Shown piece by piece: positions 6,737 through 58,686 of a stretch of DNA of 64,000 nt (position 1 is its first letter; every line of letters starts with the position of its first letter). The notes under the pieces are model-generated. The model saw nothing but the letters and a program-made list of their open reading frames with translations. It was not told where the DNA came from and ran no database searches. Where the stretch lies: assembly GCA_949295935.1 (NCBI GenBank), contig CASFMW010000003.1, forward strand, positions 28,109 through 92,108. Direction: 5' to 3'. The position numbers and the translations under genes were made by a program. Source of the DNA: an uncultured Pseudomonadota bacterium (GTDB lineage: Bacteria; Pseudomonadota; Alphaproteobacteria; RF32; CAG-239).

Positions 6737-7808
6737 GTTTGGCGGCGGCATTAGCCGCGGCGGAAGAAACCTGCATCAATAAATAACTGACCATCTCCTC
6801 GACCGGCATAGCTGCATTACGAGTATCTCTTTCGCAGTTATAGAGCAATTCCAAAACACTAAAAACACGATCACGATTCCAAATGCTAAGCTGTTTTTTG
6901 AAACTAGATTCGCGGAAAAAAATAATCCTCGGCACCAGCTTTTTCACCGCTGTGTCAATCGTGTCACCCTTTTCCATAGACCCAAGACAAACCAAAATCT
7001 TCTGAAAATGATAAAATAAAGAACGCACCACTTGCGCCGGATCAATCCCTTCATTCAACAAACGTTGATAAGCTTGAAGCGTTTTATCTTTCAAACCACT
7101 GGCAGCAAAAAAACACACGTCATCGGTTGAAGAAGAAGCCGTATCACTAACCACCGCCCGCACATCTTCAGGCAAAACCGTTTTCTTATCTCCGAGATAA
7201 GTCACCAGTTTTTCCAGCTCGCCCAAATTGCTTTTTCTGTCATTAGAAAGACGCGCACATAAAAGCTGCAGCGCCTCATTTCCGATAGACACACCATTTT
7301 CACTCAAAAAGGTCCTGACTGTTGAAAAAACATCTTCATCGCGATCTTCATAACAAGCAATAACGCCGGCAAACTCAGCATCTTCGGCAAACTTCACCAA
7401 AGAAGACTTTTTATTCAAAGACGCCGAATAAATAATTAAAAGTGTGTCCGACTTTGCATCATCAAATAAAGACTTAAGAACTTTAGTCAGATTATTGTCG
7501 GCGTTTTTAATCACAACAACCCGACGTCCCCCCATCAGAGATTGAGCATTAAATTCGCCGATAAGCAAACCGGCATCAGCATTCACATCTTCTCCGTTAA
7601 GATACACCACCTGAAACGGATCATAAATATCGGGACTTATAGCCTTTGTCAGATTGCGCACATATTCTGACATCAAACCTTCGTTTGAGCCATAAACCAA
7701 CCAAAATTTAACGGAACTATCCGGCTTTTTCAAATAGCGGTCAATTTGCGGAGACTTAAATATCACTGGTTGACCCCTGCTTTGTAATAACTGAATGGAA
7801 ATAAGCAC
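6720..7808 (-). CDS. holA: DNA polymerase III delta subunit
   Basis: Position downstream of leuS-lptE and delta-subunit-like sequence (…VYGSNEGL…); annotated 5' end overlaps lptE by ~50 bp so true start may be an internal non-ATG codon. Confidence 0.8.
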   Translation of the reverse strand: MLISIQLLQSRGQPVIFKSPQIDRYLKKPDSSVKFWLVYGSNEGLMSEYVRNLTKAISPDIYDPFQVVYLNGEDVNADAGLLIGEFNAQSLMGGRRVVVIKNADNNLTKVLKSLFDDAKSDTLLIIYSASLNKKSSLVKFAEDAEFAGVIACYEDRDEDVFSTVRTFLSENGVSIGNEALQLLCARLSNDRKSNLGELEKLVTYLGDKKTVLPEDVRAVVSDTASSSTDDVCFFAASGLKDKTLQAYQRLLNEGIDPAQVVRSLFYHFQKILVCLGSMEKGDTIDTAVKKLVPRIIFFRESSFKKQLSIWNRDRVFSVLELLYNCERDTRNAAMPVEEMVSYLLMQVSSAAANAAAKLSRGY

Positions 7809-16083: not shown

Positions 16084-16126
16084 AAAAAGGGCTACCCACA
16101 GGCAACCCCGAAACAAAGGAAGAGAT

Positions 16127-16912
16127 TTAAACCGAAACTTTCCCCTTAATCGCCGGATGATACTGATATCCTTCCAACGTAAAATCTTTAAGCGTAAAGC
16201 CGTCGATTTCACGAACAGCTGGATTCAAAACCATTTTGGGCAACGGATAAGGCTCACGAGAGAGTTGCTCTTTCACCTGCGCAAAGTGGTTTTTATAGAT
16301 ATGAGCATCACCCAAAACATGAATATACTCACCGGCTTCAAGCCCACAAACCTGTGCTAACATCATGGTCAGCAAGGCATAAGAGGCAATATTGAACGGC
16401 ACACCGAGAAACATATCACCGCTACGCTGATACATCATAAGTGACAGCTTTCCATCCTGCACATAGCATTGATACATCATGTGGCATGGCGGCAAAGCCA
16501 TTTCATCAAGTTGCGTCGGATTCCAAGCCGAAACAACAAGGCGGCGGCTATCCGGCGTATTTTTGATGTCATCAACCAGCTTTTTCAATTGGTCAATACC
16601 GAGATTATCCCAATTACGCCATTGCGCACCATAGATAGGCCCAAGGTCACCTTTTTCATCAGCCCATTCGTCCCAGATATGAACACCGTTATCATGCAGG
16701 AACTCTATATTCGTGTCCCCTTTAACAAACCACAAAAGCTCAGAAATAACACCCTTGAGAAACATTCGCTTCGTCGTCAGCAACGGAAATCCTTGCGATA
16801 AGTCAAACCTCATACTACGCCCAAAAACCGAGCGTGTTCCTGTACCTGTGCGGTCTTCTTTGTCATGACCGTTTTCAATAATGTCCTTAAGTAAATCAAG
16901 ATACTGTTTCAT
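16127..16912 (-). CDS. thyA: Thymidylate synthase
   Basis: [15 protein letters not shown]... and catalytic-Cys region (…[10 protein letters not shown]…); ATG at 16910-16912 (ORF-track extension to 16957 is upstream read-through from a TTG). Confidence 0.97.
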
Positions 16913-16967
16913 AAAAAATAATATTTTAGAATTAATAATAAAGTTAATTGAGCTCAATATATCCTAT

Positions 16968-16992
16968 TTTAGACAAAGGTCAACAAAAAAGC
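16968..16992 (-). promoter_or_regulatory. Conserved promoter-like element upstream of thyA (minus-strand reading TTTTTTGTTGACCTTTGTCTAAAA; -35 TTGACC, 16-bp spacer, -10 TATATT)
   Basis: Near-identical motif recurs at 25830, 34065, 40992 and, related, 18699. Confidence 0.5.
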
Positions 16993-18698: not shown

Positions 18699-18777
18699 TT
18701 TGACATTTTTGTCACAAAGTGCTACCTAAAAATCAGAGAATTATTATTTTAGTTATTAATCTATAAATCTTATTATC
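18699..18777 (+). promoter_or_regulatory. Promoter (TTGACA-N17-TACCTAAAAAT) plus conserved A/U-rich SD-less leader for the first of two tandem membrane paralogs
   Basis: ~57-bp block 18721-18777 ~93% identical to 19315-19372. Confidence 0.5.
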
Positions 18778-19257
18778 ATGAGTACGATAGAAATTTTATT
18801 ACTGGGCATCATGGCCGTCATTGCGATTAATTTTTTCTATGTTCTTTTCAAGAAGCCGTTTTGGAATCTTTTCAAACAAGCAGTATGGAACACATGGAAC
18901 GGATTGTGCCTTATTATTTTAGGCATACTGTTTGTAATTTATGCAATCAACACGGAAAGAATAAACGGATTCTTTTTGCTGGCCGTATTTGTCGCAACCT
19001 TCGTGAGCTATATCTCGACCAAAATGATAGAAAGAAAATTCTGCACAGTTATGTATGGAGAAACTCATTTTTTCCGCATTACATCTTTTGTCGGCAAAAA
19101 GATATACGGAGAATTAGCCATCACTGGCTCGGGTGAAACTGTTCCAGCACGATTGGTTTGTCCGCTTCACGCCGATTACAAGTATAATGACATCATACCG
19201 GTTGCGGTTTTGTTATGCAAACAAAATGAAATCATCGTCGAACCGACGGAAAATTAA
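18778..19257 (+). CDS. Hypothetical membrane protein, tandem paralog 1 (159 aa; N-terminal TM helices, C-terminal soluble domain)
   Basis: Shares NFFYVL(F/Y)K.PFWN, HFF(R/K)I...G(K/R)I(Y/F)GEL and C-terminal VEP motifs with the ORF at 19373-19849. Confidence 0.65.
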   Translation: MSTIEILLLGIMAVIAINFFYVLFKKPFWNLFKQAVWNTWNGLCLIILGILFVIYAINTERINGFFLLAVFVATFVSYISTKMIERKFCTVMYGETHFFRITSFVGKKIYGELAITGSGETVPARLVCPLHADYKYNDIIPVAVLLCKQNEIIVEPTEN

Positions 19258-19291: not shown

Positions 19292-19372
19292 TTTGACTTT
19301 TTAAGCATAAAATGCTTACCTAAAAATCAGAGAATTATTATTTTAGTTATTAATTTATAAAATCTTATTTTT
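19291..19372 (+). promoter_or_regulatory. Promoter (TTGACT-N18-TACCTAAAAAT) plus conserved leader of tandem paralog 2
   Basis: Duplicate of 18699-18777 element. Confidence 0.5.
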
Positions 19373-19849
19373 ATGGAAACGCTTAAAATTTTTTTATGTA
19401 TTGTCATTTTCATAAACATGACAAATTTTTTTTATGTGTTATATAAAGCTCCTTTCTGGAACTTTGATAAACAATTTTTATGGAAATTATGGGTTTTATT
19501 CTGTTGCTCTGCATTAATTGTATTAGCCTTAATTTGTTATTTTCATAACATTAATAACAAATGGATTATAACAACAATATTGTTAGCTCTCGGAATGGAT
19601 TTAAACTCCATCCCCCTTGTGCTGTCAGATTTTAATAAAGTGATAAAAGAAAGACCTCACTTTTTTAAAATAGAGAGAATAGAAAACGGACGAATTTTCG
19701 GTGAACTTTTTATAGCCGAAAAGGACGACACATTCCCTGCTGAGATGATAAACGTTCCACAAGGAAAATACAAAATCGGAAATAAAATAACAGTAAACGT
19801 CGTTATCTGTACAATTGAAAAAATAAAAGTTGAGCCTCAAACAACTTAA
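19373..19849 (+). CDS. Hypothetical membrane protein, tandem paralog 2 (158 aa)
   Basis: Paralog of 18778-19257 (roughly 30% identity, same architecture). Confidence 0.65.
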   Translation: METLKIFLCIVIFINMTNFFYVLYKAPFWNFDKQFLWKLWVLFCCSALIVLALICYFHNINNKWIITTILLALGMDLNSIPLVLSDFNKVIKERPHFFKIERIENGRIFGELFIAEKDDTFPAEMINVPQGKYKIGNKITVNVVICTIEKIKVEPQTT

Positions 19850-24871: not shown

Positions 24872-24981
24872 TCCAAAATTCCGTAACATTAAAACCTTAT
24901 ACCGAAGGTGATAAAGGATAAAGCACCCCCTGTCAACTGATTTAAAACGAAAAAAGCCCTGCATAAGCAGAGCTTTTGTTC

Positions 24982-25785
24982 TTAAAGAGCTGACTTCAAC
25001 TGACACAACCTAGATAGCACATAGGCTGTATCTTTCACAATTTCACCAAAGCTTCGAGGTGCTGTCAAATACAAATAATCAGTATTATCAACCCCATAAG
25101 CCAAAGTCATCGGCTTTTTCAAACTCAGCAATTCTTTACAGCGCTTGAGCAGGCTTGGCAACACAATCGGCTTTTTATAATAGACATCTTTATGACGATT
25201 ACGATCAAGCAACATTCCTTTACCATGTCGCACCACCAAGAGCAAATCAGCAAATGTTCGTTCAAGTATGCCTTGTCGGTTATCATACCAAACATCAAAA
25301 CTCTTAAAATCCATTTCCGCACAAACAATCTGCTTAGGATTATATTCATTACGAAAAACGGAAAAATAAGTTTTTTGCTTAAGACCGATATTTGTATCAA
25401 AAAATGAAAAACAGTTACCATCGACATACAGCGAACCTTTTTCAACCAACGCCCCCAAGCGTTTTATTTGACAATCAGCGCCAATAGCATAATAACAATC
25501 GCCATTATAAGCTTTCATCTGCCTACCATTTTGATATTCACCACTGCATTTTCCTGAAGGATAAAGCAAATATCCGCTTTTTACGCTAATGGAACGCACA
25601 TGAGAAACCAATACCTCCAATGCCGGAAAACTAAGAATCATACTCATCTTTGTTTCTGTGCAGTGAAGCACGGCTAGATTACGAAAAGTCCAAAATTCAC
25701 CTTTTTCAACATGTGTCTCAATACCGCCGATTTCTCTTGAAGTCACTTTCAGAACAGCTGTTCCGTTTTGAATAAATTTTTCCAT
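24982..25785 (-). CDS. Hypothetical protein (267 aa), Cys/Tyr-rich, no recognisable domain; inserted between rbfA and truB
   Basis: ORF preceded by the conserved TTGACTTTTGTCTA promoter motif; shares an F-D/S-x-x-(Y/W)-W motif with the 144/179/180-aa paralogs. Confidence 0.55.
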   Translation of the reverse strand: MEKFIQNGTAVLKVTSREIGGIETHVEKGEFWTFRNLAVLHCTETKMSMILSFPALEVLVSHVRSISVKSGYLLYPSGKCSGEYQNGRQMKAYNGDCYYAIGADCQIKRLGALVEKGSLYVDGNCFSFFDTNIGLKQKTYFSVFRNEYNPKQIVCAEMDFKSFDVWYDNRQGILERTFADLLLVVRHGKGMLLDRNRHKDVYYKKPIVLPSLLKRCKELLSLKKPMTLAYGVDNTDYLYLTAPRSFGEIVKDTAYVLSRLCQLKSAL

Positions 25786-25829
25786 AATATATAATCTTTA
25801 ATAATAAATTCTCGAACTTTAAGAATACA

Positions 25830-25852
25830 CCATTTTAGACAAAAGTCAAGCG
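25830..25852 (-). promoter_or_regulatory. Conserved promoter-like element (minus strand CGCTTGACTTTTGTCTAAAAT) upstream of the 267-aa ORF
   Basis: Motif family; -35 TTGACT, ~16-bp spacer, TATTCT. Confidence 0.5.
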
Positions 25853-25912
25853 TTTTACACAAAAAAAATACACTGTCACAATTGCGAACAGTGTATTTAA
25901 ATTCAAAAACGA

Positions 25913-26827
25913 CTAAAATTCGAGCATTAGAGATTCTGTCTTTTTAAACAATTTATTTCCAATTTTAAGGTGTTTACTAGGAATGCACTCTAAAAAGCCA
26001 CCAGAAGCCAAAACCACCTTTCGGTTCTGATTATCAAACCCCAACAATGTAAATGGCGTTGAAGAATCAGATAAGACAACCGTGTTCATCCATAAAGAAT
26101 AAAAGTCTTTTTCTTTGTTTAACAATAAAAAAGAGGCAGATTTTTCATCCCAACCATACAATCGATTATTAGATTTAAGAAAACAATGTCGGCGTGGTTT
26201 ATAAAGACGACCAACAGGTGTCAATACATCAAACCTGCCATCCAATCGCTCTCCTACAACAAATTTTCCTTGATGTCCCCAAAAATCAATTATTTCATAA
26301 TTCTTCCAAACAGTTTCACGCACCACATTTTTATTAAAATAACGAACAGTCATCGTCCCATCTGAAAAAGGAGTAATAAAAACATTGTTTTCATCTAATT
26401 TCTTTTTTCCTAACAAGACTTCATCTTCGCCACAATACCAAGATTTTTTTCCCTTTCGATATATAAAAATATAAGGAGAAAAACTAAAATCTTTTACACT
26501 GCATGAAAGTTTCACAAAAGAACATCTTTTAGAACAATAACGATAAAGAACATAAAGACCATCGAGTTTACTAAAAACTAATAAATCTCCCTCATGAAAA
26601 GAAAAGCTTCCTTTAAGTCCCTCATTATAACAAACATACTTTCTTTCCTGTTCCGAATACAGATAAGCAGCCTTCAAATCACCAATAAACGTTTGCATTC
26701 CAAATTTTGAACGAACAAAAAACTTCGTCTCGGTTAATACAAAAGATTTCATAATTATAAAGATTAAAATTAAACATAAAAATAAATTAAAGTAACCAAG
26801 AGATAGCACAAGTTTTTCATTTGTCAA
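25913..26827 (-). CDS. Hypothetical membrane-anchored protein (304 aa; single N-terminal TM helix, Tyr/Lys-rich beta-rich ectodomain)
   Basis: ORF; hydrophobic segment LVLSLGYFNLFLCLILIFII; located inside the infB-rbfA-truB-rpsO-pnp gene string. Confidence 0.55.
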   Translation of the reverse strand: MTNEKLVLSLGYFNLFLCLILIFIIMKSFVLTETKFFVRSKFGMQTFIGDLKAAYLYSEQERKYVCYNEGLKGSFSFHEGDLLVFSKLDGLYVLYRYCSKRCSFVKLSCSVKDFSFSPYIFIYRKGKKSWYCGEDEVLLGKKKLDENNVFITPFSDGTMTVRYFNKNVVRETVWKNYEIIDFWGHQGKFVVGERLDGRFDVLTPVGRLYKPRRHCFLKSNNRLYGWDEKSASFLLLNKEKDFYSLWMNTVVLSDSSTPFTLLGFDNQNRKVVLASGGFLECIPSKHLKIGNKLFKKTESLMLEF

Positions 26828-33427: not shown

Positions 33428-33467
33428 CAAAAAAGCTCTGAGTAGTGAAACTCAGAGCTTTTTTTAA
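33428..33467. terminator. Bidirectional terminator between rplI (+) and the 180-aa paralog (-): AGCTCTGAG-tagtgaa-CTCAGAGCT flanked by A/T runs
   Basis: Perfect 9-bp stem. Confidence 0.75.
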
Positions 33468-34006
33468 TCTAAAGAAGCAACCGGACAGGCAAAATAAGTA
33501 TTGAGTTTTCCACCAGCAATAAGACTATCAGGACTATCCAAAAAATAAACAATTCCAGCAGCCCCTCCATTTCCATACTCACTATCTGTCCACAAAATAT
33601 CATGAGGACAAATCGGCTCAAAGCCCATTCTTATTCGCTGAATATTAATCTGCGTTAAACGAGGACAAACTTCTACCAGCCAAAAATGCCTATCCCCGCG
33701 AGAACATTTATTGCCAAGAATAGTTTGTTTTTCACAATACTTTCCTGCTTCAAACCAATCTAAATGATTAGTTGAATGCTCAATAAATACAGCTTTTCCA
33801 GCAATAATTATTGCTTTAGGATGTACCCCTTTCAAAGGAAACCAAGAACGTTTATCATTTTCATAAACAACTTCAAAAGAAAAGCGTTCTTTAGGACCTC
33901 CTTTCTGAACAAAATACCCTCCAAAATAACGAGCAATTTCTGCCGGAAGAATTTTATTCTCTTTCATAAGAGTTACCACTTGTTCTATAACTTCTTTTTT
34001 TTCCAT
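33464..34006 (-). CDS. Paralog-family protein 1 (180 aa) of a three-member small-protein family; possible SUKH/Smi1-Knr4-like fold (speculative)
   Basis: Shares with 34123-34662 and 40491-40925 the core ...(V/L)(V/L)Y(K/E)N..(K)RS..PL.GV.P.AI..GK... and YC(E/Q)KQ...G...FW and F(D/S)xx(Y/W)W blocks. Confidence 0.7.
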   Translation of the reverse strand: MEKKEVIEQVVTLMKENKILPAEIARYFGGYFVQKGGPKERFSFEVVYENDKRSWFPLKGVHPKAIIIAGKAVFIEHSTNHLDWFEAGKYCEKQTILGNKCSRGDRHFWLVEVCPRLTQINIQRIRMGFEPICPHDILWTDSEYGNGGAAGIVYFLDSPDSLIAGGKLNTYFACPVASLD

Positions 34007-34064
34007 ATAATATAATTATTAAATTGACATCATAATAAAAAAACAAAATAAGGCTACATTAAGT

Positions 34065-34088
34065 ATAGACAAAAGTCAACAAAAAAAG
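34065..34088 (-). promoter_or_regulatory. Conserved promoter-like element (minus strand TTTTTTTGTTGACTTTTGTCTATA) upstream of the 180-aa paralog, abutting the upstream gene's terminator
   Basis: Motif family. Confidence 0.5.
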
Positions 34089-34118
34089 GTTTTATCCTTT
34101 AAGATAAAACCTTTTTTG
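34081..34118 (-). terminator. Rho-independent terminator of the 179-aa paralog gene (AGGTTTTATCCTT / AAGATAAAACCT + T-run)
   Basis: Inverted repeat with flanking A/T runs. Confidence 0.7.
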
Positions 34119-34122
34119 AAAA

Positions 34123-34662
34123 TCACGGCATCAATAACATCGGTCGAACACTAAAATTTTGAGATTTAGAAGCAATTTTCTCCACTCCTTTCTTAAAACA
34201 AGAACAGGAACATCCATACCTAGAAGAATAAATCCAATAAGCAGAAGAAAAATCAATTTTTTGCCCACCAAGAATTTCTATCTCCTGATTAATGTTATCA
34301 GCATTCTTAAACAAGAAATCCCAAATCTTACGAGTACCCATATTGGCCGAATAACCATAAAATTTAATTTGAGCAGCTCCATCTAAAGCTTCTGCAAAAG
34401 AAAGCCTTTGTGGCAAATCCCAAAGCGAAACAAAACAACGTTCCACAAAAATAGCAATTGGAATCTCGCCCAAAACTTTACAATCATAAACGTGCCCTGA
34501 CTTATACAAAACCTTAAAAGGCAAAGGCTCAGAAACAACACTCACTTCTGTATCAGCAACAAATTTCCCGCCCCATCGTTTGCATAAATCATCAATTGAA
34601 ATACCTTTTCTCAACATCTCACTAAAAAGGTAATCTACCGCTTCACTTTTACTTAGTTCCAT
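34123..34662 (-). CDS. Paralog-family protein 2 (179 aa)
   Basis: Homologous to 33464-34006 (N-terminal ...RWGGKFV... vs ...RYFGGYFV...; core PLPFKVLYKSG...GEIPIAIFVER) and to 40491-40925. Confidence 0.7.
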   Translation of the reverse strand: MELSKSEAVDYLFSEMLRKGISIDDLCKRWGGKFVADTEVSVVSEPLPFKVLYKSGHVYDCKVLGEIPIAIFVERCFVSLWDLPQRLSFAEALDGAAQIKFYGYSANMGTRKIWDFLFKNADNINQEIEILGGQKIDFSSAYWIYSSRYGCSCSCFKKGVEKIASKSQNFSVRPMLLMP

Positions 34663-34864
34663 AATAAAAATATTAATAATACAAATAAAAATTCAAAATC
34701 AAATTATCTTTAAATGAAAAAACAATTTTTGTCAATGTCTGGATTAGTTGCCCGTTGCTATATAAAAAGCTCGGAGAACGAGGCAAATAATAAGATTTTA
34801 GGGCGACGACACCGCAGCGTACAAACTAGTACGTGAGAATGTCGGAGACCCGCAGACAACACCC

Positions 34865-34994
34865 TAATCGACCATTATACAAACTTAAAACTGGGGATAA
34901 TAGTACAGATAGAGGCATTTCTAGCTGCGAGAAAAATTTTAGTGAGTACATGAATTTTTCGAGACAGCGTAAAATGCCTCTAGATGTGCTGTTA
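34865..34994 (+). repeat. Intergenic repeat copy B (~130 bp), near-identical to 21193-21334, embedded in a 450-bp intergenic region with additional mosaic sub-repeats
   Basis: Direct sequence comparison; flanking sub-repeat GAGtCGAATAATAAGAaTTTAGGG...AGCGTACA.A..AGTACGTGA occurs at 34775 and 35011, with a related copy at 21055. Confidence 0.7.
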
Positions 34995-35114
34995 AAAGTT
35001 TAATATGTGAGTCGAATAATAAGAATTTAGGAATTTTGCGAGGAGCGTACACAGAAGTACGTGACCGAGCAAAATATCCGACAATTCTGTATTAGTCGAC
35101 CACAGAGTAAACTT

Positions 35115-40457: not shown

Positions 40458-40486
40458 ATAAAAAAAGCCCTGCAAAAGCAGAGCCT
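40458..40486 (-). terminator. Rho-independent terminator of the 144-aa paralog gene (minus strand GGCTCTGC-tttt-GCAGGGC + T7)
   Basis: Stem-loop plus T-run directly after stop codon. Confidence 0.7.
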
Positions 40487-40490
40487 AAAA

Positions 40491-40925
40491 TCATGGTAAA
40501 TATATAACCGGTCGCACTTTAAATAATGGATTATCATCCAGAGCACAGCTCCGTACCTGCCATTTCCCACTGATACCAAAACCATAAAGCTTATCTTTTT
40601 GCTCATACCAATAAGGAGCATCAAAAACAATAGGCTTAAAACCAGCCAGCTCAGCCGTTTTATTAAAATCATTAAACTGATCTGAAAAACAAATCAACGA
40701 CTTCCAAAAATCCTTTTTTCCAAGAGAAATCCGATAAGTTTTAAATTTTTGTTTTTGACAATAGTTCTGTGCCGACGATAAAAGCATTTTTTTAGGCGCT
40801 TCATCTAAAATAGCAAACTTTCCAAAAACAATAGCCAAAGGTTCAACACCTTCTAACGGAACAAGCGAACGTTTTCCATTTTTATAAAGAACCGGCAACG
40901 GAAATTGAATATTGTTATTATCCAT
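40491..40925 (-). CDS. Paralog-family protein 3 (144 aa), lacks the N-terminal segment of the other two
   Basis: PLPVLYKNGKRSLVPLEGVEPLAIVFGKF..., YCQKQKFKTYRISLGKKDFW, FDAPYWYEQ blocks shared with 180/179-aa proteins. Confidence 0.7.
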   Translation of the reverse strand: MDNNNIQFPLPVLYKNGKRSLVPLEGVEPLAIVFGKFAILDEAPKKMLLSSAQNYCQKQKFKTYRISLGKKDFWKSLICFSDQFNDFNKTAELAGFKPIVFDAPYWYEQKDKLYGFGISGKWQVRSCALDDNPLFKVRPVIYLP

Positions 40926-40991
40926 AAAAATAAATATTAAAATTATAAAATAAAAAAATACAAATCACTAATTTGGGATATAAAGCAAGAT

Positions 40992-41014
40992 TAGACAAAA
41001 GTCAACAAAAAAAA
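40992..41014 (-). promoter_or_regulatory. Conserved promoter-like element (minus strand TTTTTTTTGTTGACTTTTGTCTAA) upstream of the 144-aa paralog; T-run abuts lptF/G stop codon
   Basis: Motif family; -35 TTGACT, 17-bp spacer, TATATC. Confidence 0.5.
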
Positions 41015-58338: not shown

Positions 58339-58686
58339 TTAAACATCAAGCACAGCAACACATTCAAAAATCCCTTCTTTAAAATAGAAAAGCTTGAAAT
58401 AAATTCCATGCATTGAACGAACCATTATTGCCTTACCAGAAAAACTCAAATTTCCGATTTTTTCTTCATCTTCATAAATCGGAGAAACAAAAGTCATACC
58501 ATAAGCTAAAAACTTACTCATATCATCATAGGTAAAATGAGCATAGCGTTCTACTTCTAAAGCAATTAACATACCATAAAAACAAGCGCCGACCGACAAA
58601 GAAATTTTTCCAACAGAATAATCTCCATTCAACGTCCGTAAGACATCTTCTTTAGTTGGTTTTCTGAATTCATCATTTTTTTTCAT
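58339..58686 (-). CDS. Hypothetical small protein (~115 aa), stand-alone unit with own TTGACA promoter and terminator
   Basis: ORF; ATG at 58686 (ORF-track TTG start at 58707); no recognisable domain. Confidence 0.5.
   Translation of the reverse strand: MKKNDEFRKPTKEDVLRTLNGDYSVGKISLSVGACFYGMLIALEVERYAHFTYDDMSKFLAYGMTFVSPIYEDEEKIGNLSFSGKAIMVRSMHGIYFKLFYFKEGIFECVAVLDV

Follow-up and report, generated by a model that had tools for sequence, protein, structure and literature searches.

An invariant spacer box shared by the promoters of thyA and small orphan genes in uncultured gut Alphaproteobacteria

Why would the gene for thymidylate synthase share a promoter motif with small genes of no recognizable family? 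The question is raised by a 64-kb stretch of contig CASFMW010000003.1 (hereafter the window), a core chromosome segment of an uncultured alphaproteobacterium with a guanine-plus-cytosine (GC) content of about 41%, in which thyA and 3 orphan genes (o267, o180, and o144) are preceded by nearly the same sequence. A first-pass annotation had pointed to this motif, and had found its presence at both thyA and accessory genes unexpected. We find that the sharing is conserved in 4 species, and that the motif is well supported by sequence comparison as a -35 hexamer plus an invariant 9-bp box, TTTGTCTA(A), located in the upstream spacer of a sigma70-type promoter. The box probably marks a small set of co-regulated genes with a translation mode of their own. 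With somewhat more confidence than doubt, we take it to be the operator of a sequence-specific DNA-binding protein, in a promoter that opens a self-contained single-gene cassette.

The pattern TTGAC(T/C)TTTGTCTA is present in exactly 4 copies in the window, all on the minus strand and all intergenic, 64–80 nt 5' of the ATG of thyA (16912), o267 (25785), o180 (34006), and o144 (40925), i.e. in the places and the form first described. The 14-mer TTGACYTTTGTCTA is exact at 16970-16983, 25836-25849, 34066-34079, and 40992-41005 (minus strand). With up to 2 mismatches it has 6 matches compared with 1.43 expected, a number that 0 of 100 shuffles reach, and the two 2-mismatch matches resemble chance. 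A 21-mer that includes the T-run matches 3 of the 4 sites (0.03 expected), and TTTGTCTA itself is found 4 times in the 64 kb, each time within the motif. For example, the minus strand at thyA reads gcTTTTTTG-TTGACC-TTTGTCTAA-aataggaTATATT, with the thymidylate synthase ATG 71 nt after the -35. The sites, their -10 elements, and the genes they precede are as follows (all minus strand).

16969..16990, minus strand: site 1 (thyA), with T-run TTTTTTG at 16984-16990, -35 hexamer TTGACC at 16978-16983, and spacer box TTTGTCTAA at 16969-16977
16956..16961, minus strand: site 1 -10 TATATT, 16 bp after the -35; 10 of 12 matches in the promoter scan
16913..16955, minus strand: site 1 discriminator and A/U-rich leader without a Shine-Dalgarno sequence; TTATTATTAA at 16932-16941; leader conserved among thyA orthologues
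16127..16912, minus strand: thyA, thymidylate synthase of 261 amino acids (PF00303); GC 0.444; terminator 16088-16109
25835..25849, minus strand: site 2 (o267), with -35 TTGACT at 25844-25849 and spacer box TTTGTCTAA at 25835-25843; upstream hairpin 25870-25894, then a T-run
25822..25827, minus strand: site 2 -10 TATTCT, 16 bp after the -35, from the promoter scan; TTATTATTAA at 25798-25807
24982..25785, minus strand: o267, orphan of family E; GC 0.379; no Pfam match; terminator 24952-24977 directly before truB
34065..34087, minus strand: site 3 (o180), with T-run at 34080-34087, -35 TTGACT at 34074-34079, and spacer box TTTGTCTAT at 34065-34073
34051..34056, minus strand: site 3 -10 TAGCCT, 17 bp after the -35; weak
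33464..34006, minus strand: o180, orphan of family A; GC 0.357; terminator 33429-33463
40991..41014, minus strand: site 4 (o144), with T-run at 41006-41014, -35 TTGACT at 41000-41005, and spacer box TTTGTCTAA at 40991-40999
40977..40982, minus strand: site 4 -10-like TATATC, 17 bp after the -35; weak, final base C; read from the sequence
40491..40925, minus strand: o144, orphan of family A; GC 0.347; terminator 40465-40486

To describe the promoter, all unique instances from the window and from related genomes were aligned on the motif, with transcription starts as predicted from it. A -35 hexamer of TTGACT or TTGACC, near TTGACA, is found at every site, and TAnnnT follows it at 16–18 bp in 49 of 70 unique sites compared with 5 of 70 in a shifted control; 20 of these 49 also have TGn. 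The initial reading of the motif as a promoter is borne out by this alignment. Within the window, its proposal that each -35 is followed by a TAT-rich -10 is best borne out at sites 1 and 2, whose TATATT and TATTCT are the only ones of the 4 candidates to pass a simple promoter scan; TAGCCT and TATATC are weak. Other promoter types were considered and rejected. Specifically, for alternative sigma factors (extracytoplasmic-function/RpoE with GGAAC...GTCTAA, sigma54, sigma28, and sigma32) no conserved -35 or -24 stands where its spacing to GTCTA would have to place it, the sequence upstream being a variable hairpin, and the spacing does not fit a Bacteroidetes-type promoter (TTTG / TAnnTTTG).

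Conservation of the motif starts abruptly at the T-run of 5–9 T plus G, and after TTTGTCTA the preferred base is A (45 of 60). The T-run had been likened to an UP element and placed before each -35. It does directly precede the -35 at sites 1, 3, and 4, while at site 2 it is missing there and lies 11 nt further upstream as the tail of a hairpin. It also spans just the 5–9 nt directly upstream of the -35, compared with about -40 to -60 for an UP element, and appears to be for the most part the U-tract that ends the terminator of the preceding gene. At 42 of 70 sites (40% in the control) the T-run is directly preceded by a stable hairpin; the T-run of site 3 is the tail of the terminator hairpin 34082-34117 that follows o179, and that of site 4 begins right after the stop codon of an lptF/G-family permease gene. 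Because the upstream neighbor points the same way in 56 of 62 cases (median gap, 121 nt), and because of these hairpins, the intergenic region usually seems to be just a terminator plus the promoter module, with the T-run doubling as the U-tract.

Downstream of the -10, a short mixed segment is followed by a TTATTATTAA-like block whose first base is at +41 to +45 from the -35 start. Its position is fixed relative to the promoter and not to the ATG, which lies 59–100 nt from the -35 start across sites. Good -10-like hexamers (TATTAT) show a sharp peak here, 29 of 77 sites having one at +42/43 from the -35 start, i.e. at about +7 to +12 of the predicted transcript. The box itself, taken together with the -35, forms an imperfect dyad, T(T/A)GAC-N4-GTC(A/T)A, with half-sites TTGAC and TAGAC, whose center is 16 bp before the TAnnnT -10 and about -28 from the predicted start.

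Is the box more than the ordinary promoter of this organism? The T-run and TTGAC are generic here, which is what speaks for a chance repeat or a plain promoter consensus. Six other window promoters have a T-run and TTGAC(A/T/G) with no box, and among o158, o279, o179, o115, and o129 the promoters are of the T-run or TTGAC(A/T/G)-N16-17-TAnnnT kind, again without it. In total, the box is in 4 of about 10 recognizable window promoters, and is absent from the adjacent ribosomal-protein and translation-factor operons. The TTTGTCTA half, which had been singled out as an addition that sigma70 does not need, is thus a real extra element: it is lacking in the other promoters with a T-run and TTGAC and has about 1–7 copies per related genome. 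A generic consensus would stand before hundreds of unrelated genes, and few copies per genome are found in a 20-mer scan of species genomes. Given the shuffling result, the confinement of TTTGTCTA to the motif, and the restriction of a few copies per genome to a single clade, the view that there is nothing special about this sequence can hardly be credited. A related form had also been reported upstream of the first of 2 tandem membrane paralogues, o159. We find the sequence where it was placed, and do not regard it as the same box because the gap between TGAC and GTCA is 6 nt and not 4:

18700..18716, plus strand: o159 promoter, related but different, TTGACATTTTTGTCACA (TGAC-N6-GTCA), followed by the same kind of Shine-Dalgarno-less A/U leader

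The scan used the 20-mer TTTTTGTTGACYTTTGTCTA against 185,579 genomes, one per species, and returned 51 loci. Of these, 48 are from 29 species-level metagenome-assembled genomes (MAGs) of gut and rumen Alphaproteobacteria, which are labeled uncultured Alphaproteobacteria, 'Azospirillum sp. UMGS63', Pseudomonadota, or 'uncultured proteobacterium', and whose sources include human gut, deer rectum or omasum, and rumen. The other 3 hits (Fangia, a Bacteroidetes MAG, and a Pantoea symbiont) are without the surrounding architecture and represent chance. Related genomes have 1–6 hit loci each with this 20-mer (up to 7 sites), contigs of 310–320 kb have one copy only, and metagenome contigs add 25 further loci, most from human-gut or ENA assemblies. 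Because shared housekeeping proteins diverge to 61–63% identity for RbfA and TruB and 88% for NusA, the clade is roughly family-level. The related loci were available as regions of 8–20 kb, and individual ones are referred to below by L-numbers.

A phage origin was also considered and rejected, as a megablast comparison of 14–22 kb with phage records gave no match and the 20-mer has no match in IMG/VR. A 17-mer has 6 hits in IMG/VR, 5 of them without the cassette layout of -10, leader, and ATG. The sixth (L056, IMGVR_UViG_3300025133_001591, motif at 6953-6969 on the minus strand) is ambiguous: its surroundings look promoter-like (A/T-rich, with an ATG some 90 nt downstream), and it may come from a phage of this clade or be a coincidence. 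A full-text literature search for the core motif returned only unrelated primer lists.

Constraint on the box is strong. In about 427 kb of clade DNA the 14-mer is exact 60 times, differs at one base twice, and differs at two bases 9 times, about 4 of these last looking like genuine promoters; the window has 4 exact copies and no copy that differs at a single base. When orthologous promoters are aligned (thyA from 4 species, o144 from 4, and o180 from 3), the box never changes, and the variation falls in positions +14 to +21 (the 8 bp after the box) and in the upstream flank. For example, the thyA orthologue regions L017, L019, and L021 keep the site-1 motif and differ in their flanks, with that of the L019 module replaced entirely. 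The box is more conserved than the -10 hexamer, and its information content, above 20 bits, is to our knowledge higher than anything RNA polymerase requires from a spacer. Selection on the box sequence has to be assumed under any reading, since the remainder of the module is by now close to random.

A second set of loci was retrieved by protein identity, blind to the motif. In these, o144-, o180-, and o267-like orthologues always have the exact box, and o179- and o279-like orthologues always have non-box TTGACA promoters. As orthologues keep their state, the presence of the box is a stable, gene-specific property and not a measure of promoter strength. An invariant box within randomized flanks, stably present gene by gene, favors selection for binding over recent mobilization.

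These data bear on the view that no dedicated factor is involved and that the box, as an intrinsic part of the promoter, makes it an unusually strong or well-insulated constitutive one for the RNA polymerase of this clade. Such an element might work through spacer contacts, or possibly through curvature from T-tracts phased at 10 bp (TTTTTTG-TTGAC-TTTTG-TCTAA). The consensus -35, the frequent TGn, and the 10-bp period of the T-tracts all agree with it. A further lead comes from T7 A1, a strong Escherichia coli promoter with a similar layout, TTGACT-TAAA-GTCTAA...GATACT (the sequence was verified in T7 records), although T7 A1 has N5 rather than N4 between the half-sites and we know of no function for its GTCTAA. 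Some family members have TTGAC and no box, or TTTGTCTA with a degenerate -35, so the -35 and box halves are separable, a point that also suits an intrinsic element. Conversely, the conservation of the box exceeds that of the essential -10, which is unexpected for weak spacer contacts, the adjoining ribosomal-protein and translation-factor operons do without it, and the adjacent paralogues o179 and o180 hold opposite box status across species. On balance, we find an intrinsic element less probable, though still to be taken seriously.

Variants of the box are found in family members that lack the exact motif: TTGACTTTTGTCCA, TTGACTTTTTGTCTA (one extra T), TTGCTTTTTGTCTA, and TTGTTGTTTTTTTTGTCTAA. 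A sister promoter of gene family 11 has TTGACTTC(C/T)GTCAA at the same position, which is a perfect dyad. Separately, L022 (3009-7219) holds 3 tandem paralogues of family 27 (180–444 amino acids, with a faint HEPN-like match) whose promoters are graded: one has the exact box, one has TTGACTTTTTGTCTA with its extra T, and one has TTGACTTTG followed by unrelated sequence. This series possibly represents natural decay of the box.

The motif had been described on its own, and this picture proves incomplete: it is no more than the upstream end of a longer conserved module, which includes a Shine-Dalgarno-less A/U leader and a terminator. The leader between promoter and ATG is roughly 30–65 nt long and 89–91% A/T. 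Using a simple pattern, a Shine-Dalgarno site is present in 1 of 59 box genes compared with 121 of 306 other genes in the same loci; in the window, 38 of 62 genes have one, including most housekeeping genes. Instead, the leaders of box genes are rich in A at defined positions, with frequencies of 0.63, 0.86, 0.76, and 0.64 at -14 to -11, 0.71 at -6, and 0.63 at -3, compared with 0.38–0.48 at those positions in other genes. In Flavobacterium johnsoniae, ribosome profiling and mutagenesis show that A at the same positions promotes Shine-Dalgarno-less initiation (Baez et al. 2019, PMC6847099).

Five more window genes have an A/T-only, Shine-Dalgarno-less leader with A at -13, -12, -6, and -3, together with a low GC (0.29–0.38) and boxless promoters. 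Because they share this leader type, the Shine-Dalgarno-less class is broader than the box class, with 9 of 62 window genes. The 5 boxless genes are:

18778-19257, plus strand: boxless gene without a Shine-Dalgarno sequence
19373-19849, plus strand: the same
25913-26752, minus strand: the same
34123-34662, minus strand: the same
58339-58686, minus strand: the same

The tandem membrane paralogues o159 and o158 have a near-identical leader, cctaaaaatcagagaattattattttagttattaat... (18717-18777 and 19312-19372, plus strand), and differ in their spacers (TTGACATTTTTGTCACA and TTGACTTTTTAAGCATA, respectively).

At the other end of the module, an intrinsic terminator hairpin lies about 5–30 nt after nearly every box-driven open reading frame (ORF). 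These terminators are ordinary and varied, with no conserved 3' end to the cassette. Their presence raises a further reading. In lambdoid late promoters such as PR', a factor binds between -35 and -10 while sigma70 pauses RNA polymerase at a -10-like element early in the transcript. By analogy, the box could be the loading site for a Q-like antiterminator or pause factor, with polymerase then reading through the cassette terminator into, for example, truB-rpsO-pnp. This would suit the -35 TTGACT with its conserved spacer element, the promoter-anchored TATTAT peak, the terminators after the cassettes, and the co-directionality of cassettes and flanking operon genes. Nevertheless, no Q-like family surfaced among the clustered neighbor ORFs, which were partly annotated, and genomes have many sites rather than one per element. 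In addition, TATTAT-like words are common in a leader of 90% A/T and could equally represent an A/U translational enhancer at the mRNA 5' end. A Q-like loading site is thus very improbable.

Which genes does the box precede? By BLASTP, the 79 genes that follow it form 12 mutually unrelated families, which rules out one paralogue family carrying its own upstream region. Their numbers are:

Family A (o180, o179, o144): 47 genes
Family B: 11 genes
Family C: 5 genes
thyA: 4 genes
Family 11: 3 genes
o267 family: 2 genes
o279 family: 2 genes
SPFH/Band 7 protein: 1 gene
Singletons: 4 genes

Apart from thyA and the SPFH protein, no box gene has a significant Pfam match. The accessory window genes have a GC of 0.29–0.38 compared with a gene mean of 0.414, and thyA, at 0.444, is near that mean and higher than they are. 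Family A is a small one: among 1.84 billion proteins, 98 representatives were found. Its C-terminus has a faint Lcl_C/DUF1566 Pfam match (E 0.19), and an AlphaFold model with a predicted local distance difference test score (pLDDT) of 79 finds PDB matches that are all C-type-lectin-like and nonsignificant (E >= 0.4). By eye, the family A proteins of the window (33464-34006, 34123-34662, and 40491-40925, minus strand) have no signal peptide, and longer members have an additional N-terminal two-helix segment.

The window genes include ndk, thyA, ychF, trmL, L25, pth, pnp, rpsO, truB, rbfA, and comM, together with rpsF-rpsR-rplI, infB, ylxR, nusA, rimP, the lptF/G-family permease gene, rph, rdgB, and grpE; no Rfam family and no tRNA are found in it. 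Cassettes often sit at junctions of rimP-nusA-ylxR-infB-rbfA-truB-rpsO-pnp and of rpsF-rpsR-rplI, co-oriented with those genes, and the same junction holds different families in different genomes; for example, rbfA-truB holds family C, F/E, or A. In the window, the usual order rimP-nusA-ylxR-infB-rbfA-truB-rpsO-pnp is interrupted within 21348-42124: o144 lies before rimP, o179 and o180 after infB, and o279 and o267 between rbfA and truB, and a block with rpsF-rpsR-rplI, comM, and a 945-amino-acid Trypsin_2-like gene lies between infB and rbfA.

The terminators after o267 (24952-24977) and o144 (40465-40486), both on the minus strand, are nearly identical (GCTCTGCTTnTGCAGGGCTTTTT). In L050 (about 1200-1290), an o180-like gene is joined to an o267-type terminator and truB junction, which suggests rearrangements with breakpoints in similar terminators. 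Between infB and o179 there is a 452-bp noncoding gap (34663-35114) that by eye is internally repeated (gtacgct...ccctaaaatcttattatt...), and parts of this gap are found again in front of family A genes in L050 and L086. Within it, Rfam gives a weak match to group II intron domain 5 (35035-35094, plus strand; 18 bits, E 0.25). A small gene of the Xre helix-turn-helix (HTH) type is found in or near the corresponding infB-o179 region in L084, L086, L004, and L050.

Could the box then be the signal of a mobile or recombining cassette, i.e. a recombination site, or a stretch of short homology for exchange between boxes and terminators? The abrupt start of conservation at the T-run, the wholly different thyA flank of L019, the differing families at one junction across genomes, the L050 fusion, and the low GC of the accessory genes (0.29–0.38 vs 0.414) would all be expected from it. 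By contrast, the 4 window cassettes have no terminal inverted repeats, target-site duplications, or partial box at their 3' ends. No integrase or transposase family is present among the common neighbor clusters, most neighbors being unannotated, and viral contigs have no match to the 20-mer. Moreover, positions are orthologously stable across species, thyA has a native GC, and the box has escaped the near-randomness of the rest of the module. We think it distinctly unlikely that the box is such a signal.

We return to the box as an operator. It is favored because of the information content of the box, its gene-specific and stable presence, the small and unrelated gene set, and its dyad character. 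On the sequence evidence, a cassette runs from the terminator hairpin and T-run of the upstream gene through the box promoter and A/U leader to the ORF and its intrinsic terminator. The putative box-binding protein would give cassette genes a common transcriptional input, and repression is its most likely mode because the -35 is consensus and the site overlaps the region bound by RNA polymerase; alternatively, it may be a factor working with sigma region 4. The A/U leader would then allow Shine-Dalgarno-independent translation, probably via ribosomal protein S1. A broader version, which we hold to be unlikely, joins box, A/U element, and Shine-Dalgarno-less leader into one dedicated expression system: a factor (repressor, sigma-contacting activator, or Q-like antiterminator) would switch on the orphan cassettes and thyA, coupled by terminator read-through to translation-machinery operons, with mRNAs that bypass Shine-Dalgarno initiation.

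Several observations weigh against an operator. No recurrent transcription-factor gene lies beside the sites (660 ORFs from all loci were clustered and gave housekeeping neighbors only), and none is present among the window ORFs scanned. The Xre-type HTH gene was rejected as a neighboring regulator, as in the 4 loci it adjoins o179-like genes, whose promoters are boxless. The dyad has 4 of 5 symmetric pairs, for which chance is about 1.6%, and its central N4 (TTTT) never varies either, although a simple dimer site would not need this. At 2 of the 4 window sites (3 and 4) the -10 is weak, and the real start site could differ from the assigned one because TATTAT, the better -10-like hexamer, peaks at +42/43. 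Finally, the loci were collected by an exact 20-mer, making the invariance of the box there partly a matter of construction; the less biased material (the window, non-seed hits, and loci found by protein identity) is more limited in size and comes mostly from close relatives.

A promoter with an embedded regulatory box is an already known kind. What is new is the combination: a rigid motif, confined to an uncultured gut clade, with a Bacteroidetes-like leader in a Shine-Dalgarno-using host, orphan cassettes set within the nusA-infB-rbfA-truB-rpsO-pnp region, and thyA among the genes concerned. The clade is known from MAGs only, and we know of no published study on gene regulation in these gut and rumen Alphaproteobacteria. 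As such, the box is a cis-regulatory signature of unusual clarity, shared by 29 species-level genomes, that ties thyA to at least eleven protein families of unknown function, and it offers a way to look for the regulator through phylogenetic profiling or DNA pull-down. The module may also be a natural portable expression cassette for this uncultured clade, with an insulating terminator, a strong promoter, and a Shine-Dalgarno-independent leader, in a host that uses Shine-Dalgarno sequences for most genes and keeps a distinct set of genes that follow the adenine pattern known from Bacteroidetes. Should the box be a strength element and no more, its interest is local.

How does this arrangement compare with known systems? 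Correia elements of Neisseria are likewise short repeated intergenic sequences that give a promoter to unrelated genes; the box differs in having no terminal inverted repeats or target duplications (in the 4 window cassettes), few copies, one orientation, and a fixed distance to the ORF. Phage morons resemble the cassettes as autonomous units of promoter, ORF, and terminator, with low-GC accessory ORFs set between other genes. Here, however, the cassettes are in the core chromosome and not in a prophage, they have one invariant box, and one of them carries the housekeeping gene thyA.

The lambda PR'/Q system shares a spacer element with a sigma70 -10, a second -10-like element early in the transcript, and a terminator further down. 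The MotA-box middle promoters of T4 also combine a factor element with a sigma70 -10, whereas here the -35 is intact. Compared with both, the cassettes are present in multiple chromosomal copies, with no homologue of Q, MotA, or AsiA seen among the partly annotated neighbors. The initiation regions of Bacteroidetes (PMC6847099) are alike in the lack of a Shine-Dalgarno sequence and in A at -14 to -11 (peaks at -13 and -12), -6, and -3. They differ in that the host here is an alphaproteobacterium with many other genes that do have a Shine-Dalgarno sequence, and in that the promoter is of the TTGAC and not the TTTG/TAnnTTTG type.

Two comparisons with DNA-binding regulators remain. For the CRP/FNR-FixK family, whose box consensus is TTGAY-N4-RTCAA, the sequence TTGAC-N4-GTCTA fits 9 of 10 positions. 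Even so, the right half is invariably GTCTA and not GTCAA, a perfect dyad is found in only one sister promoter, and no CRP/FNR-family regulator is present among the window ORFs scanned. With its center at about -28 from the predicted start, and not at -41.5 (class II) or about -61.5 (class I), the box does not fit class I or II activation. Repressor-controlled sigma70 promoters are alike in their consensus -35, in TGn/TAnnnT at 16–17 bp, in the extra sequence over the RNA polymerase region, and in the few sites that make up a regulon. The box differs from theirs in being weakly palindromic, with an invariant central N4, and far less degenerate than typical operators.

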